Below, in pieces: positions 11,467 through 58,027 of a stretch of DNA of 64,000 nt (position 1 is the stretch's first letter; each line of letters starts with the position of its first letter). Under the pieces are notes generated by a model. That model was given only the letters and a program-made list of their open reading frames with translations, was not told where the DNA came from and ran no database searches. Both the position numbers and the translations under genes were made by a program. The DNA is from Blasia pusilla (taxonomy: Eukaryota): assembly GCA_050084515.1 (NCBI GenBank), contig CM114271.1, forward strand, positions 21,824,001 through 21,888,000, given 5' to 3'.

Positions 11467-14301
11467 ATGGAAGCCCCAGTTGCTGAAGTCAATGAGGCGC
11501 TCACAAGCTCGAGACCTACCTATGCGTTAAATCCTGATCAACTTTCACGCTATGTCGACTCGACTCCTTTCACCGAGGGAGAAATTTTAAATCTCCATAA
11601 AAAATTCCACGTACTTTCCCACTTCCCCTCTTAAGAAGAATTGAACAGGACTTCAAAAGAGAGAAACAAATATAATGATCATGACAATGAATTAGAGCTC
11701 ACAGAGTGATTGAATTCCCGTTGTGCACTCAGCCTTGCTTCTTAGAACCTGAGGTGGCAGACTATCAAATCTCCCGACATGGCGACCGGAAGTGATTGCA
11801 AAACGATCTTGATCTTCAGGAAGCAAGTCGTTTCTGATAATTGATGCAAGCACAACCCGCCCTCTCGAGCAGGTTAATTCAGTAAGACCGGTTGTCCACA
11901 GGGAGGAGGTCCAGAGAGTACTGCATTAGAGGTAGAGATTTAAATGGTTTGCTTGTAGGAAACCCTAGTTTGAAGACCGCGGTATTTCGTCCAATTGACA
12001 CCAACTACGATCCAATCTGTTTTAATTTCCCGGAAAAGAGCAGTTGCTGTTTCCTCGACCAAGGAGAGGCTTTCCTCCTTATCAGAAGCTCTGGAATTCT
12101 AGGTACAGCTCAGGAGCGTAGCCAACGATCGGACACCAATCCTCGCTCATATCACCGATGCTTGAAGACAGCCTTCGCCACGTCCCCCGCCTTCTTTCCA
12201 CTGATTCATCGCGCCCTTCTGATATCGCGTCAATGCGATGCCCATCTTACTTTTAAGGTGACCATGGGTAGGCTGAAAAAAATTCCGTAACAAGGTTTGA
12301 GCCTGGATTGGTATGAATCTATGAAAGTTGATTGCATAAACATCGATGAGTCATGAGAAATTGAGAAGCAGCGATAAGAATTTCAAAAATCTAAACATTC
12401 TTTTCCATGCAAATGAGAATATTATTCTTTTGAGGCGGGCTGATTGAACTGGAAACTTTCTGCATGTATGGCAGGAGCTGAGTCGAGATGGGCTGGACAG
12501 AATATTACACGACGAGCTGATTCAAGTCGAGCAGATGCGAGCAAATCCTTTCGCTTCTAGGATCTGTGAGTTGTTTAGCGAGGATGGCTCTGGAGTTCTC
12601 ACGTTTGAAAACTTCCTCAATATGATGTCGGTGTTTTCTCTTCACACTCGACCGGAAGTGAAAATGGTTTGGGCTTTTGCGATGTGGGACTTCGACGGCG
12701 ATGACGTCATCGGTCCTGGTAAGCTCTGCATCTCATCACATCTCATCTCCAGCTTTGACCTCCAGCCAACCTCAGTCGATCGCACTCCAACCCTTTTTTA
12801 TATGTGTGGTCCTGTACCTCAGGGATACGTAAAGAAGATCTTCTTCCACGATCAATAGTACTCGAGCGTTCTAGAGTTTATTTCATATGATTAAACAGAC
12901 TCCTCAAAAAAGTGACCTAGCAGGCAAGCCGAGAGTAGTGTCGGAAGGCAAATGAATGCCAGGAGAAAAGCTTAGTATATTCCTCATACAAACATACGAT
13001 CGCAGTGCCTTTTCTCCTGGCATTCAAAAAGTTCCCACTGTAACTTTCTAGTTCCTAGATCCGCAGCCTTTCTCTCTTCACTGGGAGCCTTGCGAGACTT
13101 GTAATTCGGTCCGTTTCTCTACTAACCTGACATAGATACAAGGGACGCTGCATGGTCCAAGCTGTCCAGAGAGTACTATTGTATCATCGATGCATGTTCT
13201 GAGTATAACTTGAAGTAGGACCCACATCGTTGCTCTCTCCACTTGGAGCCTTGCAAGACTTGTAATGTCGTCCGTTTCTTTAGTTACATACATAGGATAG
13301 ATATAAGGGACGCTCCATATGATCCAATTTGTCCAGATAGTACTACAGTATCAGTGATGCATGTGCACGTTTCCGACCCTGTAATTTGTTTCTACTTCTT
13401 CCTGCTTAGAGGGGGAAGTTCAAGATGGGGAGGAGCACCCCAAGCACAAGTGTTACGGGTCGAAAGACTGTTAGAATCCGAACACAACGGGAATAATTTT
13501 TAATCGCATGCATCTGTAAACATCAAGTCGTCCAAAATCAGTTAGAATGTTCCAAAGGGAGCAATTAAACACAGCATCATTTGATGAATTTATGAAGAGC
13601 TGGGGAGTGAGAAGTGTGTCAAGATGAGGTCGTGAAAGGCACGGTCTTAACGCCGTGCCTTTCCAGGGATCTCCCGTGGAATGCAGTAGTAAAGAAGGTC
13701 GTTCTCTTCTTGAAGTTCATGAACTGAGGACGTTGGTTCCATGAGAGCACTCGTGTAAACTAGGATTCTAGTGCATGTATGCAGATCTTCCACCATCATT
13801 GAAAGCATCTAACCCCGTCTACTAAAACTACCAATGAGGAAGACACACCTGAAAGCTCCACTGCGTATGCTCATGCACGTCCAGTGTTTACAGTAGGTCT
13901 ACGCTGGGGTCACCGTTTGACTTATCTAAAGTAAGGCCTACATTCTGTCCAGAGACTCTAGCTTCGATGAGGCACAAGAAGAGAAAAGCCAAACATAGAC
14001 TCTAGCTTCGATAGAGGCACAAGAAGTTGTAAGTCACTGACAGACGGCTCCGCGCGCAGGTGACATAAGGTATGGACTGAATCTAATAACCTGCTCTGGA
14101 GTTGCAATGAGCCCAAGCCTGAAGATTTTGACTCGAGTGCCTTCGGCCGCTGCGTTGGAAGACCATGAATTGGATGGCTTGGTGAATGAGGTTGTGAGAG
14201 AGTTGGACCCTGAGGGCTATGGTCTGGGCTATCACGACTTTCGGTCCATTCTTGCTCGTATGCCAGACTTTATTACCAACTTTCGCATGTCATTCTGGTA
14301 A
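11467..14301 (+). CDS. Calcium- and integrin-binding (CIB2/3-like) EF-hand protein; exons 11467-11610, 12475-12718, 14060-14301
   Basis: The exons join in frame: ..YVDSTPFTEGEILNLHKKFH|..MRANPFASRICELFSEDGSGVLTFENFLNMMSVFS..KMVWAFAMWDFDGDDVIGPG|DI..VVRELDPEGYGLGYHDFRSILARMPDFITNFRMSFW*. This matches CIB-family motifs (NPF..RI..FSEDG.G.LTF; C-terminal A..PDF..F.I). Confidence 0.85.
13074..13363 (+). repeat. Diverged ~160-bp direct duplication in CIB intron 2
   Basis: ggagccttgc(g/a)agacttgtaat..gtccgtttct..aagggacgct..tgtccaga(g/t)agtacta..gatgcatg occurs twice (~13075 and ~13235). Confidence 0.8.
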
Positions 14302-15399: not shown

Positions 15400-16100
15400 A
15401 TTTATATGATCCGAGGTTGTTAGTGGCATAGATGAGTTAGATCAGGAGAGGCTCGGGGTGAGTCTAAATGTTGACTGTGCGTGAGGCGGGGTGTGTCATC
15501 AGGGGATCAACATTAGCACGTAAGCTAGTGAGGAGTGTGGAGTGTGCTCAAGCACTCAGACTCTTCATGAATCTGAGTGCTTGAGCACGTGAGGCAGGGT
15601 TATCATTACGGCGTTCTTCTTGGGCTCGTGGTAGTTTGACCAATAATAGTGCAATTATACGGAGTGGAATGAGGTATGGAGGGGATTCGAGTGACGAACT
15701 TCCCCGACTTCAATCTGTGGTTGGATCGTCATCATTGGACAACGAGTCTAATGACAAGATTGTAGGCAGAGGCAATGACTCATCAAGAGAGATGGACGAC
15801 ATGAGCCACAAAAGCATGCGTCGTTTCTTGGGTGTGGTAGCCCCGGTAGGCACCATCGACTTAGATGATTTCATCCAGGATTTTGACATGTGGTATGATT
15901 TCCAGGAGATTCAAGCCCCTACATGATTAAACCTTCTAGGGTCGTGCGATGGATGATTATTGGGAGTTCCGGTGTTTACACACAGTATAGATTGATGCCT
16001 TGAAGGTGTATTGAGCTCTAGGATATGTATCCACTATTGATTGTGAGGCGTACAATGGGGTAGTGGGAGAGGATAGACCTACACCATTAACCCGGGGACT
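15400..16100 (+). mobile_element. Gypsy leader and 5' gag fragment (DNMT-bearing family)
   Basis: MDDMSHKSMRRFLGVVAPVGTIDLDDFIQDFDMWYDFQE is homologous to the gag start at ~22340. A perfect 17-bp hairpin lies at 15544-15588. Confidence 0.7.
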
Positions 16101-16104
16101 AGAT

Positions 16105-18830
16105 TATCATACGCATACACATCGCTGGTCACATCTACACACCATACAACATTGATATTCCCTACACACGGGTCGATCTACTTATAAATAAAATATACAC
16201 TCACGCCTATACATCGAGAGTCAAGACCACACAACAAAATCAGAGGAAAAAGGTCTCATTCGGTCTAAAACTCCACTTTTGAATCTATATTGGCATATCA
16301 AGCCACATCCACTCTCCGTTATGAGGGAATCCGGACGCTAGCACCTTAGTTTTTACATATACATGCAAGAGTGGTGCTCCTAAGGCCCAACATGACTTGG
16401 GAAAGCCATCTCTCCCTCTCGTTTAGCCTTGGGGGACGAGTCAAAAGGCTTTTTTGCCAAAAATAGCCATCCCACTGGTAACCTGCGTGCACAAGTTGTC
16501 GAGTGATCGTTGACTTGGTCAATAGGTCACCTGACTGACTAAGACCAAAATAGGGAAATATTTAGAGACAATGTTCCCAATGCAACGGGCATGTTGCCAA
16601 CCTCATCGGACATCTAAGAATATAGCTACACCCAAACCCCGCTAACCCTCTATGTTGTCGGCGCGATAGAACCCTATCTATCGACTAACTAAGATGTGAT
16701 AGTTGTTGTGCGCATACACATTGCTACAAAATCCAAGTCGTTGGTCACATCTACACACCACACAACGCCGATCTTCCCAACGCACGGGTTGATCCAATCA
16801 TATATGAAATATACGCTTACGCTTATACATCAAGACTACACAACCTTCCCTTAGCTGGTAGTTGGATCCCCCTAACTCCAGATAGTAGACATCGCATCTA
16901 CTTATTATCATCTACTACTCCATACACATTGGTGCCGTCATCCCGCCCCGCAACATCTCCCAACACATACTCTTATGTGGATCTCACTCATCTATCTCCA
17001 CCTAGAGATATCGATATATCCAAATTGATGTCATCTTGCAACATTATAGCTACCCACCCTTTTGGTTCCTCCAAAGAGATCTAACACTCTTGCATCCTCC
17101 TTTAGACGTTGCCACACAACAAGTGTAGTACTCAAAGATAACCAAATTGGAGTGTTTCGCTTAGTTAGTCCGACAAGTACACTGTATCACGCGTACGTAG
17201 CGCTTCCTACTTGATTCGGGATCGCAACCCTTGATATTAGGGAAGGCGGCATGTTTGGCATTGGGGTTATGGAAAGGTGACAGTGAGCCTTGTCCATTTC
17301 ACATACGTATAGACCTGTATTGGGGGTCTGTCATCCACACAATACATGACTCGACCTGAGTTAGTCGTTAGACTCCAACCAAAGCGAAACCCTGTAATTT
17401 GGTTATCTATCAACACTACACATGGTGTCATCATGGCTCGCTCTATCGTTGGCCTAGTTGGTACCTCTACCAACTTCGCCGCCGCAACATGCCATAACTA
17501 GGCGGGGGACATCCCAAGCACATGCTCTGAGGGCAGTTCCACCACCTCCTCACCAACCATCTCGGAACAAGAGGTTGTCATCTCTCCACGTACACTCACA
17601 CAACATGGTAGCCAACCAGAACATCTCCGTTGGTACAACTCTCATCGTCGCTAACTCCATGGCAAAAAACAACAGAGTCTGGCTCACTCTATTGGCCACC
17701 TCCAACAATGTGATCGATATAGGCTTCACCCGAGCCAGCATAGGAGTCATCTCACCAATTCTTTGTGATGTCGACGCACCTGCCTCACCTGTGGGCAGTA
17801 TAGGTCGTCTAGGCACCATCGATGGTATGTGCAGTGCCTCTAACAACAAAAATTACTGGGAACCCTGGCCTGTTGCCCATCACTTCCCTAATGTGGATTT
17901 ATCTTCACCCCACCTCCCAAGGGCTCAGTCACTTTCATAGCACCCCGAGTCACCACCGCAGCAACCTCTACGTGAGCCGCACAACACATAAACCTCAACC
18001 CTACATAATCCTCCCCTCTATCCTGATACAATATGGAGGCTCAAGCCACACTAGCTACCCTCGGCTTTGTGCTTGCCATTGGCTACATCATTGTCATGGC
18101 AGCCATCTTCTTCTCCAATTGATTGATATATGTCAAGAGCGATGTATCGGCTACACATCCTCCATCTATTCAGATTGGTGGTGGGACCCTACCACCATGA
18201 TTGTCAACTCCTTGATCTAAACCAACTCTCTTGCATCCAAGTCCTTGGCCTACTTATGGACGTAGCTTTTGGAAAGGATCAAAACACCTATCCCTAGTGT
18301 GACCTTATCGGTGACAATGGTCATACTACAACTATGGTGGGACCATCCTAAGTTGCTCCTAAACACTTAGAGGCACCCTAGGCCCTCTACCATGTTGTGG
18401 GCAGTCTCTCTACCTATGGGCCCCACCACACATCCAAAAAGCCATATTTGGTCCCTGTTGGGCAACGTATGTTGGTACGGGCGATTGCCTCATCGCCTCA
18501 CAATACCGGTCCTACTCTCTTGGCCTCACTAGTGCATGTTGGGGCATCTATGGGGCTACTCCTACTTGTGGACCCGTTGAATCTCGTGAAAATCTCATGG
18601 TCATCACTTGCTCCTTACACATTTTGAGCTAAATCCACTTATCTTGCACTCTCCTCCGTCATTCCCAATCCAGAACCCCGTACAAGTATTGAACTAAATA
18701 TGCTTCAATCACTCAATATGTGATGATCAGTTGCCGCATGCGCGTGAATGCCTCTCTCAAACTCTCACCCAATCTCCACCAAAACTCTTGCTAGAATCTT
18801 CAGCTTATCAATTCATACCTTGTGCATTAG
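16105..18830 (-). mobile_element. Copy A: internally deleted Gypsy derivative (gag, inverted protease piece, DNMT motif I/II remnant, PPT-like tract, short LTR-end units)
   Basis: The minus strand is colinear with 22755-25400. RVLDLFGG is at 17067-17090 and RYL*VEIDE at 16987-17013. The protease motif LLDSGSQPLILGK at ~17207 is on the plus strand. LTR-end units lie at ~16704-16845 and ~16105-16235. Confidence 0.75.
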
Positions 18831-19229
18831 TTCATTGGTTTTAGCGTGTTTTGGAATGGGGCAGTAGTGGTTTCACGTGGAGCAGCACAAATTGATTCTA
18901 GATGGGTATCACTTTGCAGAGCATACAAGATAACCTGCCAGGGCAGACATTGGGACATATCTCGAGTGCGATGGGATCGATATGGATCATCTAGGGGGCC
19001 AAGACTCTCAAGTTCTCCTTCTTTCTCAATCCCCATCTACAATCATGAAGAGGAGCCACTGGTTAGCCCCGTGAAATCTTTTGTACACGAACCGATGAGA
19101 GTTAGGAACATTTTTGTAAATGACAAGGCGGAAGAGATCATAGACTAGAATTTGTAGTTTAGGAAATCCAATGTAAACATCTGAATTGCAAATGGATTTC
19201 AATAAACGAATTTAAATGTGTTTCTCAAA

Positions 19230-20210
19230 CTTTTTTGCTATCAGTTTGAGTGCTTTTTGAGCTATCAGTTTCCGACTTACGAAAACTTGTATTTTTGGAA
19301 TACATGTATTTTTTTTCACACTGCCTCCAACTTATCAGATTTTGACAATTCGAAACTTTTCTTTTGCTATTCCATGTATGGTGTTCAGATGGTGTTTGTG
19401 ATAACCTATTCCTGCAACCTATCATATTCCAACAAGTTGCATGTTTGAATGTGGATTTCCTATCATTTCTTCATATGGATGTGAAGTTGTTTCCTGAAAT
19501 TTTGCAGTTGTCATGTCTTGCTACCTCTCGGATACCAACAGCTTGCAAGCAGTCTTTTTTTTTTCGTAATTCTTTCTTTTTTCTTAGCCTTGATGAGCCA
19601 TGTTTGTTTTCATTTTTTCTTCGTCTCATGTCTTGCAACGTGTCGGATTCCGACGGGTTGCATGTCTGAATGGAACCTGTGTGCTTCCTAGCATTTCTTC
19701 ATATGGATGTTTCTTTTTTCTTACATCATGCCTTGCAGCCTGTCAGATTCCGACGGGTTGCATGTCTGAATGGAACTTATGTGTTTCCTACCTTTCTCTG
19801 CCTTCACATGTATGTTATGTTCCTATTTCCTTCAATTTTTCAATGGCCATGTATTTCCTCTCATTATTTTCCTTGTTTGGATTTGGACGAGTTGCAGGTC
19901 TGGATGGAACCTCTGTGTTTATGATCCTTTCCGCATATGTATTTCTAGTTTTAGGGTAGAATTTTACAATGGTCATGTCTAACATGTCTAATTCCAAGAG
20001 GTTGCTTGTAGTGTCTCTAGTAACCTCGTTCATTCTTTTTTCTTACCCCCTTTTTCTTACATCCTATCATGCAATCCTTCAGATTCCGACAAGTTCCATG
20101 TTAGGATGATTTCCTTCTATTCATTTCATTCACTTTATTTTTTTTAATCATGTGTTGCTTCTACGTTTCTTCACTTTTGACGTCTTGCAACCTATCAGAT
20201 TCCGACTGGT
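19230..20210 (+). repeat. Degenerate T-rich tandem array with a recurring tcagattccgac(gggttgcatgtctgaatggaac) core
   Basis: The core recurs at ~19264, 19335, 19643, 19743, 20078 and 20195; the best-preserved pair is about 100 bp apart. Confidence 0.7.
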
Positions 20211-22299
20211 TAGTTTGGTGATTGCTTCTCTTTTCCTCTCAGTCCTTCCTTTTAGGCATTCTTGTTGGCTTCCTTAACTTTTAACATGTGTGTTTAAGCA
20301 CAATTCTAAACACCATCAACCTTCTACAGACTCCATATACCTATTCTTGAGCCAAGTCTTCTAACTCATTCGTGGCCTCCAAGTCTTCTGAGTCATTGTT
20401 GGAAATATTGCAATCCTTCACTTTCTATCAACTTCACCAAATCACCTCTCCTCTTTTTCAATTCCCTTATCTCCAAGACTATCATGATTGGTTGTTGAAT
20501 TCTGACAACGTATTGGGAATGAGGATGAGAGTCTTGGGCTAGAGCCCATAGTCAAAGTGTATTTTGAACGGCTTTGATTAGTTCTGTAGTGATAAAATCC
20601 CATCTCATGGATTTGCATTGATAAGATACCCTCCTTCCCTATAACATTGGCCTACACAAAGAGTGATTTAAGCATGTCTGAAGTGATCTCCACTATTCCA
20701 TCTTCACATCCTGATGTGAAAAATGATGTTAGTTTTTGCCCCAACCTGGTCCACTTGTTACTCTCTTCAAAACATTTCTGACTCTCATTCTGAGATCAAA
20801 GAGACTCTCATCCTCATTCCCAACCTTCTGGCATTTGAAGTAGAGGAGAAAATTCAAAAATGGTGAAAATTTTGAAGAGAGATTAAGGATTTTGTCTTTT
20901 TTAGAAGAGACACTCTCCTAAACCCTAGACCCTAAACCCTAAACCCTCTTCCTCTCCTCTCTTCTTCTCTCCTGCCAAAATACCAGCCCCCGGTCGGGGC
21001 ATGGGTGCATTAGGAGGAAGGGAGTGCATAAGGGCCCGTGTGAGCCCGCCTTCATGGGGAAAGAGGGATCGGCTCATGGGGAAGTGTGCCATGGGCAACC
21101 ACAGAGTTGGGTCATAGGTTCGGGAGCCAAAAGCTAGGAATCACGGGCAAACGGAGTTAGGAGTGTGTGGGCGTAAGGGCTACAGATAGAGACAAGGACT
21201 CACGCATGGAAAGGGTGCCTCTATGTGCATAGGGAGGCGTGCACCTAAGGTGTGAGTGTAGAATTCTGAAGGAAAAAGGAAGAGTTGTGGCATAAGGACG
21301 CTTGTTGCATGTGCCACTCGGGTGTACAAGGTAGGTGCAAGGAGTGGGAGTGAATTGAGGGTTGGGGTTGGGTGATTCTGCATAGGGAGGCGCACGTTGA
21401 TGCGTGTAAGGATAGAACGGGAAGAGTAGGGAGTAAGCGGGGCTAGTCAGGTGGCCCAAATAGCCGCGAGTTGAGCAAGAGATGGGAGGAGGCTATCACA
21501 CAGGTGCAGAGCAAGGAAGGAGACATGTAAGGGCGCCGCATAGTGCAACGTGCTTGCAAGAAGGGGGAGTTGCATAGGTCGTCGAGCTAGGGAGCGAGCA
21601 AGGAAGAGCTGCATACGTATTCTAAGTGGGCAACATGGTTGGTTGGAGGAAGTTGTGATAAACAGATAGACGAGATTGGATCCAGACCTGGTGATTCAAC
21701 AACTACTCAGTTAGTAAGGCAATACATGGTGGGATTCGTAGGAGGGGATGGAGTTAGACATTGGACCTGGTAGGACATAACAGGAATAGCCGGTCATTGG
21801 AGAACAACATGGTTGAGGGGAGTTGCAATTTTCCCGCATTAGTAGGACTTTTGAGAGCAGGTTTTGCCAATATGCATTTGCTACCTAGTTGGAGAGAGTT
21901 TGTGATGGAGTGTTACTAGTGGAGGCACACACGCTAATGTTGATGGATAGTCCACATCTATTGACGGGACGTTCGACGTGTTGTTCAAGGAGATTCTCGT
22001 GTTGTGGAGGTTATCGCTATGTGGAGCAAGAAATGTTGATTGTGCAATATATTGATGGCGAGCGTGTTCACATTATCCATTTGAGTCCCTTTAGCCCACA
22101 CTTGTCTCGTATTATTGAGGGTGTTGGGTATCGGGTAGAGCTTAGGCTATATTGGTGTAGTGATAAATGGCGAGTGTAGTCTCCTTGCATGTGTAGCATG
22201 TTGGTGGATATAATGCAGTTGCCCAAGTAGGGGTTGCATGTATGGCCCGAGAGAGTGTGTCAATAGCTTAGGTAAGCTAGTTTGGGAGGCTCAGGGTGA

Positions 22300-25200
22300 G
22301 CCCGAGTGTTAAGTGTGGGTGAGGCCAGATACGTCATCTGAGATGGACGATATGGGCCATGGAGGCATGCGTCATTTCTCGGGTGCCGTGGGTGCCATCA
22401 ACTTAGATGAATTCATCCGGAGTTTGACACATGGTACGACTTCTAGGAGATATATATGAGCTCCTACATGGTTCATCCTTTCATGGCGTGGAAGGGTTTG
22501 TTTCAGCATTTAGAGGGTCCTCCGATGGATGACTACATGGAGTTTCAGTCTTTATACTTAGTAGAGATTGATGCTTGGAGGATGTATTGGGCTCTAGGGT
22601 ATGTGTCCACTAGTGGCCACGAGGCATATGATGCAATTGTGAGAGGGGAGAGGCCTACACCATCACCCAGGGACTTGATGGAGAGGATGGGAGTGAGGAT
22701 GGTAAGGCGACAAAGTCCTTTTGTGCTAGAGGTTCACCCAATTTCAATCTTATAGTGGAGTTCTTTCAACAATTAGGGAGGAGCTATCTGGGCGTGCGGA
22801 CCGACAAGCTGAAGAGTCTACAAGATTTTCAACGGAGATCAGATAAGAGTCTGAGAGAGGCGTTCATGCACATACGGCAATTGATCATTGCCATATATGG
22901 AGTGACTCAGGCACAGTCAATGCACTTTTGGTACGGGGTGTTGGACCAAGAGCTACGAAGGAGAGTCTGAGATGCAATATTGCTTCACACTGAGAAGCCC
23001 ACATTGAAGGTGATCTTCGAGTTGTTTGATCGAGCGGGTAGAGCTCAACATGAAAGAGGAGTATGTGGTGACCACGGGATTTTCAGGGGATTCGATAGAT
23101 CCAAGGGATTCGACAGATCCATGAGTAGAAGTAGCCCCATAGGTACCCTAGCATGCACCAATACCGCGGGAACAAGCCAGTGGGCCAAAGGAGCAGGGCA
23201 GTTATTATGAGCCCATGAGGCAACAACCCGTATCGACATATGTTGGCCAATAGGGATTGGCTTGTTGGACCCATAGGCAGAGGGATTACCCACAGCATGG
23301 TAGAGGGTCTAGGGTGCCCCTGGGTATTCAGGAGCCACCTAGGATGGCCCCATCACAATTGTAGTGTGACCAATACCACCGATATGGTCACACTAGGGAT
23401 AGGTGTTTTGATCTTCGCGGACGGCTACGGCCAGAGGTAGGCCGAGGGCTTGGGGGCAAGAGAGTTGGTAGAGATCAAGGAGTTGATGATCATGGTGGTG
23501 GGGCTCCACCACGTACCACTCAAAGGAGATGGAGGATGTGCATCTGATGCAGCACTCCTCACTCGCATCGATGAATTGGAGCAGAGGATTGTTGCCATGG
23601 CGATGATGCAATTCGTGACAGGTACAAAGCCAAGGGTCGCTAGTATGGCTCTAGTCTCCACATTGTATCAGGATATGGGGAGTATTATGCATGCTTGAGG
23701 TTTATATGCAGTGCAGCTCAGGTCGAGGTTGTTGCGGTGATGACTCAGGGTGTTGCAAGAGTGATCAATCCATTGAGAGGTGGGGTGGAGATAGACCCAC
23801 AGGAGGGAACCAATGGGCAATAGGCTAGGGTTACCCAGTCGCTTCTGTTGTCTATGGCACTTCACATATTTTCAATGGTGCATAGACAATTAGTAGAGCC
23901 CATAGGTGAGATAGGTGCGTCCATATCACAAGGAGTTGGAAAGATGACTCCTATACCAGATATGGTGGAAGCAATGTTGACCATGTTAACGTTGTTGGAG
24001 GTGGCCACTAGGGTGAGCCATGCTCCGTTATTTTCCGTCATAGAGTTGGTAACAAAGGGAGTTGGACCAACAAAGGTGTTTTGGCTGGCCGCCACATTGT
24101 ATGAGTGTGGAGAGGTGGCTACCCCTTGTTCGGAGGTTCTTGTTTGAGGAGGCCATGGACCTACCCTAGGAGCATGTGCTCGAGATGTCCCCCACTCAAT
24201 CATAGCATGCTTTAGCAGCAAAGTTGGTGGATATGATCGCTAGGTCAGCAATAGAGCGAGCCATGATGACACTCGGTGTGGTGTTGTTAGAAAACTGAGT
24301 TGGAGTGTTTTACTTGGTTAGTCCTACGGGTATCGTGTACCACCCGCACCGCGTCCTACTTGATCCAAGAGCATAGCCCCTGATGTTGGGGAAGCTCGTG
24401 GAGAAGGCTATGTGTTTGGCATCAGGGTTATGGAAAGACGACATTGAGCCTTTTCCCTTTTAGATACAGAACTTTATTGGGGGTGTGTCAACTCCGTAGT
24501 TCATGACTCGACATAAGTTAGTTGTTAGACTCTAGCCCGAGCATAAGTCAGATAGTTTGATGGTGCGCACTTCGGCGATTATGATACCAACAGAGTGGTA
24601 TGATGTGTTGGTAGGGAGTACAATGTTGTACCCACTTGGTTTTATTCTTGATTTTTGGAGGAGATGGTTTCTTATTGGCCACGGTGGCAATTAGGTGATG
24701 GACAGGTGAACCATCTAGTGGTACAATTTGCGTAGTGGTGGTTGACCACATGATGATATATTGACCATGCTGGTAGCATTCATATGTGGTGTTAGTTGAC
24801 CAAGTGAGTTATCGGTGAGGAGCACCCATGCGGAGGACATTCCCATAGAAGATAGTCCCATGAAGAGACATGCCATTGTGGGTGTCTCTTCCCATGGTGC
24901 AAGGACTTCTTTACCGTTGTGGGTACAAGCCTAAAGTTATAGAGGAGTGGAGATGAGCTCATGAGGCAAGCGTGGAGCCGTGCTTGTGTCTTGGAGTAGA
25001 TAGGGTCAGTGATGGTCGTGTTCTTGGAATGGAGGGTTGATATCTTTGTATACCACTCTTGTTATGTGGCAGCCTCTGGATGAGGGTGTGAGAGTGTTAG
25101 ATCTCGTCGGATGGGATCAACACGGAAGGTAGTTGCGATGTTACAGTGTTGCGGGGATGACGGCACCGATGGTGCTAGATGTGTATAGAGTAGTAGATCA

Positions 25201-25550
25201 CATCATGTAAATGTGATGTCTGCTATTTGGGGTTAGGGGGACCCAACTTCCAGCTAGGAGGACGGTTGTGTGGTCTCGATGTATATGGGTGAGTATATTT
25301 CATTTATGAATGGATCAACCCGTCTGTTGGGAAGATCCATGTTGTGTGGTGTGTAGATGTGACTAGGGATGTGGATTTTGAAGCGATGTGTATGCGCACG
25401 ACAGTGTTGTGTGGTCTTGATGTATATGCATGAATGTATTTCGTTTATGAATGGATCTACCCGTGTATTGGGAAGATTAGTGTTGTGTGGAGTGTAAATG
25501 TGACTAGTAATATGGATTGTAATTCTTTACCAATGTGAATTGGCACGACA
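22300..25550 (+). mobile_element. Copy B: internally deleted Gypsy derivative (gag, protease, DNMT motif I remnant, PPT-like tract, doubled ~140-bp LTR-end unit)
   Basis: Gag (PFMAWKGLFQHLEGPPMDDY..FFQQLGRSYLGVRTDKLKSLQDFQR..FWYGVLDQELRRRV), protease VLLDPRA*PLMLGK (~24353, decayed DSGA), LYPLGFILDFW, and VRVLDLVG/GINT (25088-25125). Then aggaggacggt|tgtgtgg..gcacgaca occurs twice. Confidence 0.8.
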
Positions 25551-25559
25551 CCACCCTCC

Positions 25560-28500
25560 TCTTCTTCAGAGTCATGAGAGAGACTTGGAAGCCGATGATT
25601 GGTCCTAGGTTGACATGAGCGGTGAAGAGACGAGGTTCTTGTGGAAATTCAGGGACTGCTTTGCACAAAGTATGCAAGGTTGGCTGAAGGGTTCAAGTAT
25701 TTGGATCAAGTTGGATAGTGATACGCCTAACTTCTGAAGACCTTACATATCTTTTGATAGGGAGTGAGCCTTGATTCCATGTAGGAGTTGAGACTTGGTT
25801 GACATTGGACTGGTGGAGAGATCGCTTGGAGAGTATGCATCTGCCACAATTATGATGGCAACGAAGGACATGCATAATGGCTAGTGGATTGATAGGCGGA
25901 TGTCTGGGGATTAACGTCTTATCAATCGGCATACAAAGTCCAATCTCTATGCTATGCCTCATCCTGAGGAGATCTTTGATGACTTGGGGCATGCAAAGAT
26001 CTTCAATTTTTTGGATCTCTGTATTGGCTATCATTAGTTTCCCATCATGGTGGAAGACATGGAGGAGAAAGCATTTTGGGGGATAGATTCTTTCAGAAAG
26101 AATTGTTTGTACCAATGGCAGTTCTTACCATTTGGGTTGAAGAATACCCTTGTGGGTTTTCAACAAGTTATGGATAGGATTTTGGATAGTTTGGATTTAG
26201 CAAGATGTTATATCGATGAAATTATTGTCTTTAGTGCCACAATTGAGGCGCATGAGAGACATCTAGAGGAGGTATTTTGACCATTGTAGTTACATGGATT
26301 AAAGGTAGATCCATGCAAGTGCAAGTTCTTTCATGACCACATCGAGTATCTTGGACAAACCATTTATCCAGGGATAGTACAAATGTAAGTTAAGTTCGAG
26401 CTTTCATGGGATTGGGGAACTACTAACGACGCTACATGATCGAAGGGCTTTAGTGCGATTACGTAGGCATTGACTTTGCTTGACTAGGAGTGTTTTTGGG
26501 GAGATGATCAAGATCAAGCATTTCAAAAGCTGAAGGACATGTTGACATCCTCACCCAATTAAAGGCGACCTATGTGTGGTCGTCGATCTGTTCCAATAAC
26601 GTACGGATTGGAGTATGTTGGGATTAGGAGCGGTGCTCATTCAACGAGAGGATGAAGGCAAGGAGTTTAGAATGGGATATGTAAGTTGCTCAAACAAAAA
26701 TGTGGAGTCGAAGTACAATTCCTATGAAGGGGAGTACTTAGTTGAAGTGTGGACAATGGCCCATTTCAGATGTTATTTGTTTGAGAATCCTTTCAGGCTC
26801 ATCACTAATCATCAACCACTCAAATGGTTGATGGAGTGTGACAAACTCACAAGGATGCTTGCCTAATGGGCACTCTTATTGAAGGAGTATGATTTTCAGG
26901 TTATCCATCGCTCATGATATCTGAATTAGGATGCGGACGGATATCGGTTGAGCTATAACCCCTGTACAAGCCAGAGTGATGCAACATACTAGAGCTATGT
27001 GCCATGGTGAGAGTGATGAGGAGATGATGTTGGGTTGGCACGCATCTTCCTATTTATGTCAGTTGGCTATATTTGACAAGTAGGAGGCATCCACTCCAAG
27101 AGGGAGGTTAGATGGTGAGTTCTTAGATCCGGATGCTAGTGAGGAGTCGACAGGGACTCGAGAGATCCATGATGGTGAGATGATCTTAGAGTACCTATGC
27201 ACTGGTATATATCTAGGCAAGTACAGGGAGTGCTAGAGAGTGGGATCAATTCCTACAACAAGCCAGGAGGTTCAGGTGGGTGGAAAAGCATGTGCTTCCA
27301 GTTTGGAAGGCTAGACGAGTGTAGATGGTGTCATATCCTCCGCAACGAGCACGAGTCGTGAGATATGCTCACGAGGATTTTATCCATTTTGGAGTCAAGC
27401 ATATATATAGCTTGCTTAAAATTCATAATTGGTGGCGTGGTAAGCAAATTGATGTTCATCAGTTTGTAGTGAGATGCATCATATGTGACAGGATGCGAGT
27501 ATCGTTCAATGCTCTGACACCACACTTGCATCCTTTATCGATCATGGGATTAGGATATCACTAGAGTTTGGACTTTGCACGGCCTTTACCATTCCTGAGA
27601 TATATAGTAGTACATGTTGGTCATGGTGGGGCACTTCTCCAAGTGGATCGTGTTGGTAGCTTTGTCAGACATGTCAAGTGAGGGAGCGGTGTCGTGTCGA
27701 GAGCCTTTCTTTGAGTAAGGGCGGACCTTCTAGCTACAACAGATGTAATTAATGCAAATCAAACTCTATAAGAAGTTCTCCTTTTTTGGTACATAATTAT
27801 TATGTAAATCCTCCATTCTCTCACGACAAGAATCACGAATGGTAGTGCCGAGATAATCACTTCTTCATAATATGGAACCCCAAAATTCCTAACTATGAAG
27901 TCCCTGTAAACTACTTTACGTTTGTACACAAGGTAAATAGCACAACTAGTGTTAAACCCCACTCGAGCAAGCCTATTGATGTCCATGGATTGCTATATAA
28001 GGACACACAAAGTACAATCCCATGTCCTTCCTTATGTGACTATAGGAAGAATCACCGGAGTTGGAGATTGCATGACTTGGTTCATGAAAATCTCCCCAAT
28101 GTGATAAACTAGATAGTAAATGAACCAATGCCTATCTACAAAGAGAATTTTGATGTGGTATGGATTAAGGAAAGGAAAATCGGGGACAATTCGTGCTCCA
28201 TCCCTATCTGTACTTGACGGACATCCTCTACTCTCCTCTAGAATGGGGTTTGGCGGAGTTTCTCTCCCAAGAGGGGTAATCCATTCTCATTGGGAAAATA
28301 ATAAGCCAAACCATCCACTATTTCTAGTATGATTAAAATCCCCTAAGATGACAAGTATCGCATCTCCATACACACCACACTCTAGAATCCTTTCGAAGAA
28401 TAGATCATGGTCAAGTTACTCTCCCAAGAAAGATAATCCACTCTCATTGGAAGAGCAAGCAATCCCAAAGCCATCCACTCAAGAGTGACAGGAGAAACTC

Positions 28501-30070
28501 AATATGTGAAGTAGAAGGTGAAGAATCCTTGAAGGTCCCTCCTTTTTATATACTTACAAGGGATCCACAAGAATACAAAATAGGGCTAATCTTATCTTGT
28601 GCTACACGGCTTCCTCTCAAGACTTAACCAAACATATTTTGACACAAGTAGATTGCCTCTTATCTCTTCCAAAATATCCTCTTTTACTCATTTCATATCT
28701 TCCAAACTATCCTAACTACCCTAGCCACCAACCAAGACTACTTTTATTTTTCTTTTCATTAAAGCATCAACCCCACTACTTTACTTTTATAATCCCATAT
28801 TTTATTTATTACCTCTTTTCCTAAAGTTGGGCCCGTACAAATCAGCCACCCTAAAGAGGTTTAAACATATGAACTTCATTTTTCTAGGCTAATTTATTTA
28901 ATACTAATAAAACCTCTCTCTAACACTTAATGATAGATGAGTTTACATATTGGGTGATTTTATTATACGACAAGGGCTTATGCATTTCATGATTGTTTGA
29001 GTGTTTAGTCCTTTCAGTGCACCAATAGAGGCGTTGACAGACGAAGATATTGAGTTTAGGGATGACTTTCAAGCCTTATATGATCACGCGCTTCGAGATT
29101 ATTGTACATCTTCTCGAGATCATGCGGATGCAGGTGGTTTGGCAGAGAGAATTATACATGCAATGAAGAGAGGATTGCACAAGTTTGGTCTACAAAGAGC
29201 ACACTTAGGAGATTGAGACCTATAATTTTCATGATTGGTGATGGATTATCGCTTCCGTCGGCATGCATCATTGGCATCATTTTCACCATATTTCTTGCTC
29301 TATCGGAGAGAGCCAGATTTATCGTCAACTATTTGACAAGATGTGGTTGATGGAATCTCCGAATCCTTGGTCGATAGCCTCCTCCAAGCGTAGTTGCATA
29401 TCTCAGAATATCGCGATGTTAAGCAATAGCCCTCAAATATCATAGGCATTACTCTCCGAAAGAGCTCAATCCGTCGAGGATATGCTCGCACCCATACGTT
29501 TAGATTTTTTAGATCAAGTACCATCCTAGTAATTATGACTACCTAGAGCAAACGGTGCCAACACTATTTGACATGCATATGACTGTATGACGTACTATTC
29601 TATGAGTGCAAGAGATTTTACCTCCAAGAGTATTTTTTTTAGATGGTTATAATGGTACCGATTAGAAAGATCATGTGCGTAATTGTGCGCCATATCATCT
29701 TCCAAATATAGATAGTAGTATTGATCGGAGGATTGCAGTTGTTCCTTCAGGCTTGAGATGTGTGTAGTGTGGATCCGCCATAGGATCAGCCACAATGCTA
29801 GTTTGTGATGGATGTTCTTGAGGATAGCATATGTCGTGTTTGACGTTGCCTCTTGACTTGGTTCCTCATGGATGTTGGTTTTGTCCCAGATGTATATAAG
29901 TGTGATAGATAGATTATAAGATGACTCTTGATGTTATGGGTTGCATGAAGATGACTAATGATGGGGCGACATATCACCCGATCTCCTGATACTAGCACCG
30001 AAAAGATGCATAGTATTTAGATTTGTTTTGTAGGCTATCTGGAATTAGAGGGATCTAACCACCAACTACG
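25560..30070 (+). mobile_element. Copy D: Ty3/Gypsy pol remnant RT-RNaseH-integrase-PHD (pseudogenised, split by a solo LTR)
   Basis: RT: LYQWQFLPFGLKN..FQQVMDRIL..RCYIDEIIVFS (26209 YIDE). RNase H: LGLGAVLIQ..YNSYEGE..ITNHQPLKWL. Integrase: HEDFIHFG..CIICDR, SLDFARPL, GLAERIIHAMKRGL. PHD at 29759-29893. Integrase after RNase H is the Gypsy order. Confidence 0.9.
27690..28972 (-). mobile_element. Solo LTR inserted in the integrase of copy D
   Basis: TGTCGTGT..ATACGACA termini with an imperfect TSD (AGCGG vs AG-GG). Integrase reads ..DMSSEGA | AYAF.. across the insertion. A TATA-like tatataaaaagg is on the minus strand at ~28545. Confidence 0.8.
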
Positions 30071-30194
30071 GGTATGATTGGGATTATCCAATCATTCATG
30101 TGTAGATATGTGAGGATTCATAATTAGATGGATCTTAGACTTGTGGGCATGATTGCCGATGTATATTGCTAGCCATATCTTTTCGCACAATAAT

Positions 30195-30890
30195 TGTCAT
30201 GGTAGATGAGACATAGAGCGAGATAATATCGAGGCCTTAGAGGGGTCTTGTACTTCCTTATTTTAAGAGGTCATATATGACCTACAAGTTTAGGTCACCC
30301 TTCCTTTAGGATCCAGAGGAGTGGCAAGCTTGAAAAGGTTGACCCTCATATCTTTTGTGTGTAGCCACTTGGGCCTATATAGTTGGTCTCATGAGAGGAC
30401 CAAATGTGTAGTTGTTAGGGAGTTAGTATCTTGTATACTCCATCGTTGGTGACCTGCTAGGAAGAGGTTATATGTGTGTACAGATCATCCATGGAGATGC
30501 CCAAGGGGAATATGCCTCTTATGAAGCTCATTCAAAGCTCATCTTCCTTGGATCAAACCCATGTTGGGATCTGTGATATAGCGCAACTTGCATGTATTGA
30601 GTCTGGATTCTCTCTTAAATAGTGGATTAGGATTGATTGGAGATCACACAAATGAAGAGTATATTTCAAACTTTCTCCTATTGTTACCGCAATGTGTATC
30701 ATTGAGTGGATGTTTAGATGAATCATAGTTGATTGCAAGTTTCATTAAGTTTCACATTCCATATCAACTTTGTATTGGGGTTTGCCCAACTGTTCATGTG
30801 TACGTATGTTAGGATTCATAGTTAGATGGATCTTAGACTTGTGTGCATGACCATCGATGTATGTTGATAGTGATATCTATTTGCACGACA
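30195..30890 (+). mobile_element. LTR (probable 3' LTR of copy D)
   Basis: TGTCATG..CACGACA termini and homology to 950-1589. Its last ~120 bp are also present at ~30075-30191. No TSD is seen. Confidence 0.7.
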
Positions 30891-32099
30891 AAGTAGTCAT
30901 AAAAATCTTATATATAAGATACTTATGTGAAAATAGAAAACTATGAGATTTGAAGGTCTTCTCATTGTGGTCAGTTTTATCCTATATATGATTATAATAG
31001 ATTATATATATATATATATATATATATGAATTTAATTTCAAACACTCTCATAGACTTGGACTTGGAAATTATAGAATTTCCATCCTTATATCTGCCCACG
31101 TACTCTCACCTTGGACAGACAGAAAGATGAGTGTCAAGGGAGTTGTGGCAATATGGGTAGAAAAAAAATAGGGGGCAACTAGAAGAGTAGTGGATCAAGG
31201 TGGATGGGACACAACATGGTGATGAATAAAATATGAGTTGGTCGAGGAAAATCTTTTGCAATGTGATAGGAGTTACGCGCTTCTAACAAGCATCCTTATC
31301 TAAATAGTAGTATGACAATTATTCTCACTCTTTGGTTAAGTTTGATAATGGACTCTCAACGTCCCAATTTTTTTGCTCCATATCAATAATTACAATAAGA
31401 GGGACTTTTGTGGGAAGGTGTTTGTCTCACCTCCACAATGAGCACAAAAGAGGAATACAAGGAGTATGATTGATCAGATTAAAGTCCAACAACTATCAAT
31501 AGAGGCCTAGAGTTCTCGAGATATATGTAGGGGGTGATTTTACCCTAAATATTATTACATAGATATTTACAGAACCACTAACCACACCTGTATTTTATAT
31601 ACCTCTATAATCAATAAAAATAATTGTATAATTGAACATATTTGTACATGAAACCCAATTCCATGGGATATGTGATATATGAAAAAGTATATTTATTTTT
31701 ACTTATAACATTCCTAAGAATTCTATCCCATGCAATGACTTTGCAAATTTCAAACAAAGGATGTTAAGAGTGCAATTTGTTCATGTTAGACTAGGGCGAG
31801 GATGTAAAAAAAACTCAACTTTGGAGTCACACCGTGTTTCTAAATTCTGCATTCTTCTAAATTTTCCTTTATTAAAAAAATTGAAACCTTAGAAAGAAAG
31901 GTAGGTTAGGCAATTGAATTGTCTCCAATCCAATCGAACATATCAATGTAGTGCCAAAATGCTTCTACGACTCCGCGTAGTAGAAAAATTCAGATGTTTA
32001 CAACTCTATTTTCAGTGAAATGAAAGTGTGCCTATAAAATCCATATCTACCTCTTTGTTCACAATTAGTTCATACAACGCAAACATATAGTTCATACAA

Positions 32100-35000
32100 C
32101 TCCTATTCATATAAAAGTTTTCCAATCTCATGAATATAAAAACTCGACTCACATCTGTAGAGCATGGAATGCATGAGATAGCCTCTCCTTTGTCTGCTGC
32201 ATACGAATGCTTCTTGGGTATATTGTATGACCCAAGTACTCAACGTGGTCGTAGAAGAACTTGCACTTGCCATGATGTAGCTTGAGCCCATGTAATTCCA
32301 ATGGTTGAAACACCTCCTCCAAATGTCACTCATACTCCTCAACTGTTACACTAAAGACTATGATATCATCAATATAATATCTCGCAAAATCCAGACCTGC
32401 CAAGATCCTATCCATGACCCTCTGAAATTATGCCCTGAAGTTCTTTAATCCAAATGATAAGAACCATCAATGGTATAAATAATCTTTCCCATGGGGATGG
32501 ATGCCCCAAAATATAATTTTCTTCATGTCCTCCAATATGACAGGCAGCTTATGATATATGGCTCGGACATCCAATGAACTCAAGATCTTTGCATGCCCTA
32601 AAACATCAAAGATCTCTTGAGGAATGGGAATGGCATACCTATCTCCATATTAAAGCCCTCCATATCATTGTACCTGTAGGATCGTCGAAAGATCGACTTG
32701 TCGCTAGAAAACTTAATGGGGATCCCTATACCGGGAACTTCACTCAAGAAAAGCCTCAACCTCTAGGGTAGTTCTCCGATTGGAACTATAGTTCCGAATG
32801 TTCCTACCCTTTAGGGTATCCGAATCATACATACTAAATACAAAATAGCTCTTATGACTCAAACTGAACTAATTTATCCAGTGATGATCTCCTCTTCTGA
32901 ACTTAGGGTCCATATATGGCTCCCAAGTCTTCATCGTGACTAATACAGGACTCTCTAGCACGGGTATCTATGATTTCTGTAGTGCAATCTCATCTCGAAC
33001 AACACAACTTAATTGCTCCGCTACAGGAAACTTCGCACTCTCCTCTCCTCTATGTGCGATACCATGTATCATGCTCGATGTTATGGTTGCCATCTCCCAG
33101 CATACTTATAAGACATCCCAAGAAGTCCAAGAGTGTCTCTCACGATCATCCTTGATATATCAATCTCCTCGGATCTTACCCTTGGCTACTATCAAAACCG
33201 TCTAGGTGGGCATGGAGCTCAAAGGTGCAATTGCAATAATCTTTTGTAACCTCATCCGACGCTACTTAGATACTGCTAAGCTGAGAATCCATGTCAAGGA
33301 GTTTCGTTTGATTGCCTAGACCAAGACTTGACGTTGAGATACCTCCAATATTTCTAGTATTGCCGTCATTCCTAGGAGAACCCCATCACTCGCTGTGACT
33401 TATTGGCATTGAGCTCCACCAATCGTTATACATGGTCAATATATGCATAAGAAGCAGAAAAACAAACAAATGTAGGAAAGGTTGTCCATGGCATGGCAAT
33501 TCTGTTGACCACTGTTAATAGAGAGCGATCATCGTGCCTCACTGCCTATGATTGTCGTCTTGGATCCAAAATAGAATCCACTAAAAGATGGGAGGGATGC
33601 TCAACTCGCACATATGCCTTCCTTAAGATCTCATGCAGAACCAAGTTGGTCCACCATAGATACGGGCGATGTGCTCATGGCCCTACACTCATTGCATCCA
33701 AGAAAATTGCATGGTCGATTCATACACGCACCTCATGTGCACTCGTCACCACTTGTGACCACGCATCACCCAAGATCGATAATTAATATTCCTCCAAATT
33801 TCACAAAATCCTCATCATCTTTTAAAATAGCCTCAATCGTGTATTAACTAATCCACTACCTTCTTCAATATTTGATTGGCCGCAACTTGGCCAACTTGGA
33901 TCTATATCTGCTCCAAGTCGTACGCCTCAACAAAGAAATATCCCTCATTAAGGAACTCTCGTACCCTTGTATGGCCGGCACATACAACAAGTCTGGAAAA
34001 TATTGGCATTATTACACCACATGTCGTAGTGAGATGCGCCTCGCAACCTCATCAAGATCCACATATAAGTAATGTTGCACACGCACTGTTGCGTGTAAAA
34101 CAACAACTAACCCAATGATGATCCCTCCAAACACATCCAACACTTGAATACTCTCCTCTGGGATGCATCCCACAATGCGTGTGGTATCCCAGGGTGACAT
34201 CATAGCACTCTCGCCTACCTCAATTTCGTGTGACCCATCACACTTTGGTGCAAATGCCTCGAGCCATCTACACGTGCCCATCAACCAAGCGTCAAAGCTC
34301 CTCACTTGAGCTCCACAAATGGATGACCCTTGGAATGTGAGGCAGAGACACCATTCCCGCGCTCACATAATGTAGCGGCTAGCTGGAAAACCTCTGTGGG
34401 CATACCTCCCAACATCGTAACATTGGAACTAAAAATTATGGGGTGTTGTACATAGCAATGTCCGCCTCCAACAACGTACTTGATACGGGCTTCTCTTAAG
34501 TACCAGCAATAGAAGTCTTCGCCCATAGTGCCTGCATACGAATAGTATCCACTCTTCGAGAACTTTAATCAAGACTCATCGATGGGATCCTCATCACCTT
34601 GGAAAAAGTAAAAGATTAAGGAAGCTTGGTTTGATTCCTGGCTTTTCCTCTCTGTGGATCCAACTCTAGGGATGCTCCACGTGTAAAAACAATGGCTGCC
34701 TCCATCTGTGCAACCTCACATATCCAACAAGGATTCTCCAAATCTTTGGTTGCACCATGTAATGTCAATGCCACTAATCTGCAGCAAGTAACCTCAATAC
34801 CATCGCGCCAATTCGCTATTGCAAGTGCTCTATGTGAGAGCCATCCCAACCTCACATCCTAAGTCTCCCTCGACTCGTCTAGGTGACATACCTCTACCTC
34901 CTATACGAGCAAATTCACCACCCCACAAGAAAATCTAGCTCCCACTCACTCTACTAGACCACTTTGTGCATGGCATGTAGGCCCACTCTGTGGCCTCGGT

Positions 35001-35619
35001 CCGGACATAACTCAAGATGTAAGCTAAAGCACCTAATGCTTGTATAACCATACCGATGACAATGATCACTTTGATATACTCTTGGTGCGGAACCATGTAC
35101 TCCTCTAGGAGATAGCACACATCCACTATATTGATGAATGCAATCCTACTAGCGATCGGCTCCACCACATGCCCAACAAGTATCTCTTGACTACAGTTGA
35201 TCCACATATGATGGCATGGGTCTCTTTCGCATATGCTTCAAATAATCCACTGTCTCAAAATCTACGTTGTTCTATTGGTAGTGAAGGCAATCATGATTGC
35301 TCTCCATACATGACTCATGGCTACTACACTCTCCTCAGCCATGTTGCATTCGATACACTCCGCCATCTTGAAGACATCTCCTAATGTAGGTGAGATGCAC
35401 ATAAAAAAATACCGCGTCCCTCACCCGTTTCCACAATTCTTGTTCCATCATCCCATACCATGCCTAAATGGCATGGGCCTCTTTCACCTCCTTAGTCACA
35501 CTAATTAGAGGATGCAAACGAGTAAATGCCTCCCGCAACTCTTCCCTCTACGCACATGGAACTCGTGGATACTCCACAGCTTCCATGTCCATAACCCTGT
35601 GATAATTCCTTTACAACTC
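32100..35619 (-). mobile_element. Copy C: Gypsy remnant gag-DNMT-RT (protease region deleted)
   Basis: Gag WYGMMEQELWKRVRDA (~35410-35460), the PTEVFQLAATLCE block shared with copies A and B, a DNMT domain at 33260-34160, and RT FGLKN..FQRVMDRILAGLDFARYYIDDIIVFS (YIDD at 32365-32376). Confidence 0.85.
33260..34160 (-). pseudogene. DNMT3-like C5 cytosine DNA methyltransferase domain inside the retrotransposon pol region (degenerate)
   Basis: Motifs occur in order: I IQVLDVFGGIIIGL; II HYLYVDLDE; III RDISLL; IV SWPSCGQS (PC>PS); GSGLVNTRLRLF*KMMRIL; VIII AIFLDAMSVGP*AHRPYLWWTNL; IX ELNANKSQRVMGF; X QRQVLV*AIKRNSLTWIL. Motif VI (ENV) is not recognisable. Confidence 0.85.
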
Positions 35620-57955: not shown

Positions 57956-58027
57956 TGGATATTTGGATGACATAATGTAAGTCTTCATTTTACGATTTGT
58001 ATTGGCGTGGCGTAGTCATCAGCCGCT

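Follow-up and report, generated by a model that had tools for sequence, protein, structure and literature searches.

A putative DNMT3-like cytosine methyltransferase domain in a decayed Ty3/Gypsy-type retroelement, and its relatives in bryophytes

The minus strand of a 64-kb stretch of DNA (hereafter the window) very probably carries, at positions 34158–33235, the methyltransferase domain of an old and dead copy (copy A) of a Ty3/Gypsy-type retroelement, whose family polyprotein places a DNMT3-like C5-cytosine methyltransferase (DNMT) between the protease (PR) and the reverse transcriptase (RT). Comparison with database proteins shows the domain order of this family to be (gag-CCHC)-protease-DNMT-RT-RNaseH-integrase, with members in liverworts, Sphagnum mosses and the alga Closterium. 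The domain had been proposed in a preliminary description of the window, made from the sequence by reading through stops and frameshifts. It is the presence of the family in bryophytes, rather than the window copy itself, that makes the finding of interest.

Identification of the methyltransferase domain

The minus-strand translations of the 34362–33235 region contain all the peptides that had been quoted in the preliminary description, at the places given there. An intact open reading frame (ORF) of 116 amino acids (aa), at 34362–34012, reads IQVLDVFGGIIIGL...HYLYVDLDE and includes the motif I string IQVLDVFGG (motif names follow textbook usage). A second minus frame, from 33896 downwards, contains WPSCGQS, GSGLVNTRLRLF*KMMRIL, IFLDAMSVGP*AHRPYLWWTNL and QRVMGF, and a third contains QRQVL, which belongs to motif X. 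The resulting C5-cytosine methyltransferase domain (34158–33235) is of full length and broken, with 2 frameshifts and 11 stops.

Relatives were collected by searching 1.84 billion representative proteins with the motif IV–IX frame, in which stops were written as X. At E≤1e-3 this search gave 112 proteins, 14 of which also passed E≤1e-10; the lowest E-value was 1.1e-27. PF00145 was found above its gathering score in 12 of the 14 relatives that were scanned, and in 9/10 and 6/8 proteins of further sets. A cluster mate of the best match, P0113, with motif I, PCQ and ENV preserved, was aligned with the window by tblastn in two pieces with a joint E-value of 3e-47.

A hidden Markov model (HMM) of the family, built from 61 full-length domains (355 positions), was then run on the six-frame translation of the window. 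It matched three collinear places on the minus strand, which cover HMM positions 3–342, and its sole other match was noise (E 1.7). Motifs I–III are located at 34158–33901 (HMM 3–88, E 3.7e-17; 46% identity to P0113 aa 5–91), with FGG present and two in-frame stops. Motifs IV–IX lie in the second frame at 33896–33369 (HMM 100–297, E 1.1e-34), where AHRPYLWWTNL is kept, the Pro-Cys pair is disrupted and the ENV region is deleted. Motif X (SQRQVLVxAIKRNSLTW) is found in the third frame at 33381–33235 (HMM 294–342, E 0.0012; P0191 aa 188–250 aligned to 33384–33196). The analysis confirmed that the motifs, which stand in the proposed order, resemble those of C5-methyltransferases far beyond chance, though only when the comparison is made through relatives.

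Damage to the catalytic motifs

In motif I, the string VFGGIIIGL at about 34140 aligns with the FGG column of the family, i.e. the cofactor-binding motif is retained. Motif IV reads W-P-S-C-G-Q-S (cca agt tgc), and the Pro-Cys pair is thus broken in the window copy. This reflects either the replacement of Cys by Ser or the insertion of a Ser codon ahead of a surviving Cys, the latter being possible because a 9-nt repeat, ccaagttgS, flanks motif IV. The earlier reading of the catalytic cysteine as AGT/Ser therefore holds in part: the pair is broken and the agt codon is present, but a serine inserted before a surviving cysteine (P-S-C) is also possible. The ENV tripeptide of motif VI had been described as lost, and the corresponding part of the window row does fall within an 11-column alignment gap, i.e. 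motif VI is absent. With 2 frameshifts, 11 stops, the Pro-Cys pair and ENV gone, and the protease and the part following the RT missing, the window copy is confirmed to be dead, as had been claimed, and presumably does nothing itself.

The same motifs were counted in 106 relative rows, each comprising at least 70% of the domain. Motif IV is PC in 62 of them and EC in 34, and ENV is present in 70. The cysteine and ENV occur together in 64 rows, and the cysteine is accompanied by a variant motif VI in 34, a number equal to that of the E-C rows. Of the 12 Marchantia rows of the same coverage, 9 retain FGG, PCQ and ENV intact.

Affinity of the family to DNMT3

A profile built from 18 relatives was compared with the proteins of the PDB. 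The best match was DNMT3A (79.7 bits, E 2e-21), with 3B and 3C close behind, and lower scores were obtained for DRM (43 bits, E 2e-10), M.HhaI (34 bits, E 1e-7) and DNMT2 (20 bits, E 1e-3); DNMT1 was absent from the profile matches in the PDB at E≤1. Three stretches (motif I; motifs IV–VIII; motifs IX–X) are collinear between the profile and DNMT3A. An AlphaFold2 model of P0153, an intact relative from Calypogeia, was obtained from a 25-row alignment with a predicted local distance difference test score (pLDDT) of 84.9 and a predicted template modelling score (pTM) of 0.85. All of the top matches listed for this model by Foldseek were DNMT3A, DNMT3B or DNMT3C (best E 2.7e-16, TM 0.75 on the target, 22% identity).

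Both the profile and the predicted fold support the view that the family is DNMT3-like, with a non-permuted order of motifs, in agreement with the earlier statement that the domain is unlike DRM. Its likeness to the cellular enzymes (DNMT3A/3B/3C of animals, DNMT3 and DRM of plants) consists in the best profile and fold matches, which are to DNMT3A/B/C, and in the DNMT3 motif order I-IV-VI-VIII-IX-X. In contrast to cellular DNMT3, the family domains are without PWWP or ADD, are embedded in a retroelement polyprotein and, in 34/106 cases, carry E-C at motif IV; in contrast to DRM, they show no permutation.

The element surrounding the domain

Between 35547 and 32111 the minus strand of the window is collinear (tblastn) with polyproteins of Marchantia, beginning in gag, continuing across the DNMT and reaching into the RT, and both flanks that had been proposed for the domain were recovered. 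The gag-like region occupies 35547–34577 (P0261 aa 185–369 aligned to 35544–35008, E 4.5e-16; P0262 aa 402–488 aligned to 34798–34577, E 6.6e-8). Gag was not found in the window by Pfam, and in P0262 the Retrotrans_gag match is sub-threshold (E 0.054). This region is followed, at 34433–34294, by a remnant of the sequence preceding the protease and by a deletion junction (P0198 aa 76–108 aligned to 34433–34338, E 0.15; P0279 aa 400–432, E 0.006). Past the junction the next matches are those of P0204 aa 102 at 34293 and of P0198 aa 342 at 34200, and the intervening P0198 aa 109–341, which include the DSGA protease, have no counterpart in copy A. About 235 aa including the protease have thus been deleted between 34338 and 34293. 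The placing of a protease ahead of the DNMT, as envisaged in the preliminary description, is seen in relatives (P0198, P0220, P0098), but not in the window copy. The string IIDLG, in frame 2 at about 33780, was considered as a protease active site and dropped: the family has its protease (LLDSGAQ) ahead of the DNMT, in the part that copy A has lost.

The linker preceding the DNMT (SPWDTTRIV...) was located at 34293–34159 (P0204 aa 102–206 aligned to 34293–33985, E 3e-14; P0263 aa 321–455 aligned to 34323–33928) and the linker between DNMT and RT at 33234–33007 (P0262 aa 1161–1278 aligned to 33384–33007). The RT itself, with the YIDD motif, extends over 32925–32111 (RVT_1, PF00078, E 9.9e-15 at 32601–32221; P0270 aa 551–703 aligned to 32646–32188 with 60% identity), and RVT_1 was the only family detected in a Pfam scan of the three minus frames of 28–37.9 kb. 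Neither RNase H nor integrase was found downstream of the RT, there being no minus-strand pol matches below 32111, where the element ends. Copy A therefore retains only gag, DNMT and RT.

Architecture of the family polyproteins

The architecture of 287 DNMT-bearing proteins was determined with phmmer probes for the protease, RT/RNase H and integrase. Class 1 (protease-DNMT and/or DNMT-RT(-integrase)) comprises 39/287 proteins, class 2 (RT/RNaseH-DNMT-integrase) comprises 43/287, all of them metagenome records, and in the remaining 205/287, mostly short fragments, only the DNMT was seen. Every species-named protein that shows flanking domains belongs to class 1. The most complete arrangement was observed in P0098 and P0131, where zf-CCHC, aspartyl protease, DNMT, RVT_1, RT_RNaseH, Integrase_H2C2 and rve are joined in one ORF. 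Parts of the same order were identified in (i) Sphagnum P0198 and Calypogeia P0220, with the LLDSGAQ (DSGA) protease upstream of the DNMT, (ii) Riccia P0191, in which the DNMT continues into the N-terminus of the RT, (iii) Marchantia P0263 and P0270 (DNMT-RT-RNaseH), and (iv) P0279 of Sphagnum fallax (PR-DNMT-RT-IN). The order protease-RT-RNaseH-integrase with a DDE integrase, as in Gypsy Pol, is found in P0098, P0279 and a second copy of the element in the window (copy B, see below). The class 1 relatives, the single-ORF polyprotein of P0098 and the collinearity of the window all bear out the proposal that the domain is part of a Ty3/Gypsy-type element and that other members of the family carry it between PR and RT.

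The two positions of the DNMT in class 1 and class 2 reflect either one capture followed by a move or two captures. Class 2 proteins often end in a PHD finger, to which a Tudor domain is sometimes added (e.g. P0023, P0060, P0063, P0071); a PHD reader and a DNMT3 writer thus occur within one retroelement polyprotein. The PHD finger as such was considered as a novelty and dropped, since PHD fingers in retrotransposons are already described in passages of PMC6673714.

Distribution and relationships of the family

The species-named relatives of near-full length (12/12, among the 120 of 297 matches listed) all come from bryophytes, namely Sphagnum troendelagicum, S. tenellum, Calypogeia fissa, Marchantia polymorpha, M. 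paleacea and Riccia sorocarpa. Among 35 longer proteins, 17 are species-named: 14 from Marchantia polymorpha and one each from Calypogeia, Sphagnum fallax and Closterium. Two further Closterium proteins were found in other searches.

In a FastTree phylogeny of 107 DNMT rows (local support only, midpoint root, several long branches flagged), the window copy, whose branch is long (0.9), belongs to a clade of 33 rows (support 100) that holds every named bryophyte row, and the Closterium rows are found in a distant clade. All class 2 rows (40/40) fall within one 46-row clade (support 99), whose other 6 rows are DNMT only. The window domain is 42–49% identical to the bryophyte copies, as against 24–27% to those of Closterium. 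From these relationships we infer a land-plant host for the window, probably a bryophyte. The window might instead stem from a streptophyte alga and represent another algal Gypsy-DNMT3 of the published kind, as could be argued from the occurrence of the family in Closterium and from the many relatives that are metagenome proteins; a look-up of a 223-aa host ORF of the window yielded no more than a Nucleotid_trans/Streptophyta lead (score 0.81). This origin is improbable in view of the identities and the clade given above, and of the RT and RNase H found in the window, which are 60% and 62% identical, respectively, to those of Marchantia copies.

The Marchantia rows group closely together, in a clade whose end branches measure 0.003–0.07, and the 12 DNMT domains show 86–98% mutual identity; one cluster of Marchantia proteins has 18 members. 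This pattern is that of recent amplification. The DNMT domains of Marchantia and Sphagnum are 69–77% identical, i.e. as close as those of Marchantia and Calypogeia (66–77%). For a transposon domain compared across the moss-liverwort split this identity is high, and it points to strong constraint on the domain or to transfer between bryophytes.

Reference annotations list many of the DNMT-bearing models of bryophytes as genes, and the catalytic motifs are conserved. This would also be expected if the models were host genes domesticated from a retroelement, with a pseudogene of such a gene in the window. The models, however, also encode gag, protease, RT and RNase H, and within Marchantia there are multiple, nearly identical copies of them. 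The window holds three decayed copies, 24–26% diverged from one another, as expected of a family that transposes. We consider domestication very improbable.

Two further copies of the element in the window

Copy B was identified at 22342–29896 on the plus strand by tblastn with Marchantia and Sphagnum polyproteins. It comprises gag, the protease (24206–24729), a DNMT stub limited to motif I (25037–25115), the RT (25574–26583), RNase H (to 26986; 62% identical to Marchantia copies), the integrase in two parts (27220–27697 and 29001–29384) and a PHD finger (29759–29896; PF00628, 33.5 bits). In the stub, 'LISLYTTLVMWQPLDEGVRVLDLVG' is aligned to 'LSPLVTTPIVWEYSPEGVCLLDLFG', and it stands ahead of about 460 nt that are unrelated and contain an internal duplication. 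Copy C (15630–18892, both strands) consists of rearranged gag and protease fragments detected by tblastn, with 76% nucleotide identity to copy B over 1043 nt.

The plus strand of copy B gave no match to the DNMT HMM. This is what one would expect if the domain of copy A were a one-off, i.e. if part of a host DNMT3 gene had been captured by, or had inserted into, a single retroelement copy of a family that is itself without a methyltransferase. Copy B, however, keeps the pre-DNMT linker and the motif I stub, and the domain was therefore lost from it by deletion. Moreover, the 39 database proteins with PR-DNMT and/or DNMT-RT come from several species, and both flanks of the window DNMT are collinear with family polyproteins. 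A one-off capture is hardly credible.

In copy B, the stretch that stands in place of the DNMT (25179–25518, plus strand) contains a tandem duplication (25265–25377 and 25406–25518, 85% identical) and recurs in the jumbled copy C (16118–16929, minus strand) with 81–84% identity. Either this stretch is a small repeat in its own right, or it marks a DNMT-deleted subfamily that was propagated.

The RTs of copies A and B are 74% identical at the nucleotide level, and the gag sequences of copies B and C are 76% identical. Judging by this divergence of about 25% (24–26%) from one another, the copies are old. All three (15630–35547) are CpG-depleted, with an observed/expected ratio of 0.52–0.61 and a TpG+CpA ratio of 1.24–1.26, and a gene-like stretch of the window at 9600–13000 is not (1.0). 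The depletion is consistent with a decay of the copies that was driven by methylation in the host.

Evidence against the proposed interpretation

Several observations weigh against the reading of the stretch as the DNMT domain of a Gypsy-type element, or limit how far it extends. Neither PF00145 nor any other Pfam family matched the three read-through translations of the stretch at E≤1, and no PDB methyltransferase was obtained at E≤10 by phmmer with both pieces of the domain (the first piece gave six chance matches at E 0.18–0.68, the second none). A word-indexed protein search with the 116-aa motif I ORF against longer proteins scored 0 of 243 candidates. The preliminary description had named the lack of a significant methyltransferase profile match as grounds for abandoning its proposal; literally taken, this is what was found with PF00145, and it is overridden by the transitive homology through relatives. 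Because the window translations have no direct Pfam or PDB match, the identification as a methyltransferase depends on these relatives. Similarly, the assignment to a 'DNMT3 clade' derives from PDB comparisons, because the tree includes no sequence of a host DNMT3, a DRM or the Klebsormidium element. The window DNMT is about equally distant (42–49%) from those of Marchantia, Calypogeia and Sphagnum, and no closer placement is obtained.

As regards the element, no flanking direct repeats or pair of long terminal repeats (LTRs) were found for any window copy by a repeat search and self-blastn. This absence is weak evidence because the copies are old and truncated; the LTR-element class follows from domain order and homology because no LTRs were found in the window. 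Among proteins of up to 2030 aa, none of those from named land plants was a full-length polyprotein, and the Marchantia models (949–1333 aa) are in many cases flagged as partial. Finally, the yeast assay of the Klebsormidium enzyme, KnitGypsy-Dnmt3, is reported as inconclusive in the passages of PMC5890265 that concern it.

The lack of a direct Pfam or PDB match could also speak for a chance resemblance, with motif-like strings arising in the decayed protease or linker of an ordinary Gypsy element, but the probability of this is negligible given the family HMM matches (E 1e-34 and 4e-17) in order over positions 3–342/355 and the 112 database relatives.

Comparison with known elements

DNMT-carrying retrotransposons had been cited in the preliminary description from dinoflagellates and Klebsormidium, and both are found in passages of de Mendoza et al. 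2018 (PMC5890265). There, the DNMT3 that a Gypsy-type element carries in the alga Klebsormidium nitens is treated as a capture specific to the K. nitens lineage; Marchantia is not mentioned in the main text, and the corresponding passages of later texts say only 'streptophytes' (PMC12344493; bioRxiv 10.64898/2026.05.21.726589). As described in PMC5890265, KnitGypsy-Dnmt3 shares with the present family a non-permuted DNMT3-type domain in Pol, a Gypsy domain composition, a streptophyte host and catalytic residues that are kept in intact copies. It differs in its host, the present family being found in Marchantia, Riccia, Calypogeia and Sphagnum as well as Closterium, and no Klebsormidium protein was present among the species-named matches.

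SymbioDIRS-Dnmt3 of Symbiodinium likewise has a DNMT3-type domain within Pol. According to the passages on it in PMC5890265, the dinoflagellate DIRS enzymes methylated CG, SymbioDIRS-Dnmt3 having been shown to do so de novo in yeast, and this element is the basis of the proposal that an element methylates its own cDNA. In contrast to the element described here, which has a DDE integrase (rve, Integrase_H2C2), SymbioDIRS-Dnmt3 is a DIRS element of dinoflagellates with a tyrosine recombinase.

A third likeness is to retrotransposons with reader domains (chromoviruses, PHD-bearing elements and CopiaMBD), whose readers are thought, in passages of PMC6673714, to be used in targeting. A PHD finger follows the integrase in copy B and in class 2 relatives; unlike those elements, the present family combines a reader (PHD) with a writer (DNMT3) in one polyprotein.

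Targeted literature searches, with supplements and figures outside their scope, found no description of DNMT3-carrying Gypsy elements in a land plant, in line with the earlier statement that none was known, and no mention in papers of six Marchantia model gene ids. Elements of this kind are already known from a charophyte. That they also occur in bryophytes, and in Marchantia in many copies with intact motifs, appears to be undescribed in the literature searched.

Possible function and significance

In intact relatives the enzyme would be translated as part of Pol and would travel with the RT and integrase, and, according to the published hypothesis, it may methylate the new cDNA of the element itself or its fresh insertion. 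By analogy with that hypothesis, methylation of the element's own cDNA or insertion is a tentative view of the function in intact relatives, to which we give somewhat less than an even chance. Methylation of host targets and a non-catalytic role are the other options.

A broader scenario, which is possible though rather unlikely as a whole, is that of an old Gypsy lineage that has combined a DNMT3 writer with a C-terminal PHD reader since before the split of Zygnematophyceae and land plants, is still transposing in bryophytes (e.g. Marchantia polymorpha), and methylates its own cDNA or new insertions. If this were true, the 69–77% DNMT identity between liverworts and Sphagnum would mean strong selection on the enzyme or bryophyte-to-bryophyte transfer.

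A transposon with its own de novo methyltransferase is a paradox, because cytosine methylation is the main weapon of the host against transposons. Marchantia polymorpha is a haploid, transformable land plant, used as a laboratory model, with good methylome resources, and its annotated gene models include many near-identical, motif-intact copies of the family. If these copies are active, the role of transposon-encoded DNMT3s would be directly testable in this species. It is also worth mentioning that models of the family have been named automatically (e.g. 'DNA (cytosine-5-)-methyltransferase'), so that a survey of the plant methylation machinery could mistake them for host DNMT3 genes.

Other features of the window

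A search of the whole window with Rfam gave no match. No RNA dataset sharing words with the window was present among the matches listed, which included four DNA runs of one study, each with 0.05–0.12 of the words. On the plus strand, long open frames of 212, 155 and 446 aa were observed at 58016–61424, with a CxC...CxH zinc-finger-like string of a kind typical of MULE/SWIM transposases; Pfam gave no match to these frames at E≤0.01. The same strand contains a tandem array of about 17–19 units of 63 nt, which are 60–90% identical (56711–57897), and a smaller set of GC-rich repeats with a spacing of 18 nt (61857–62322). A Pfam scan of six other window ORFs yielded weak EF-hand matches only. An exon-like ORF at 12448–12858 (plus strand) has such matches, all below the Pfam cut-offs, and is probably part of a host gene for a calcium-binding protein.

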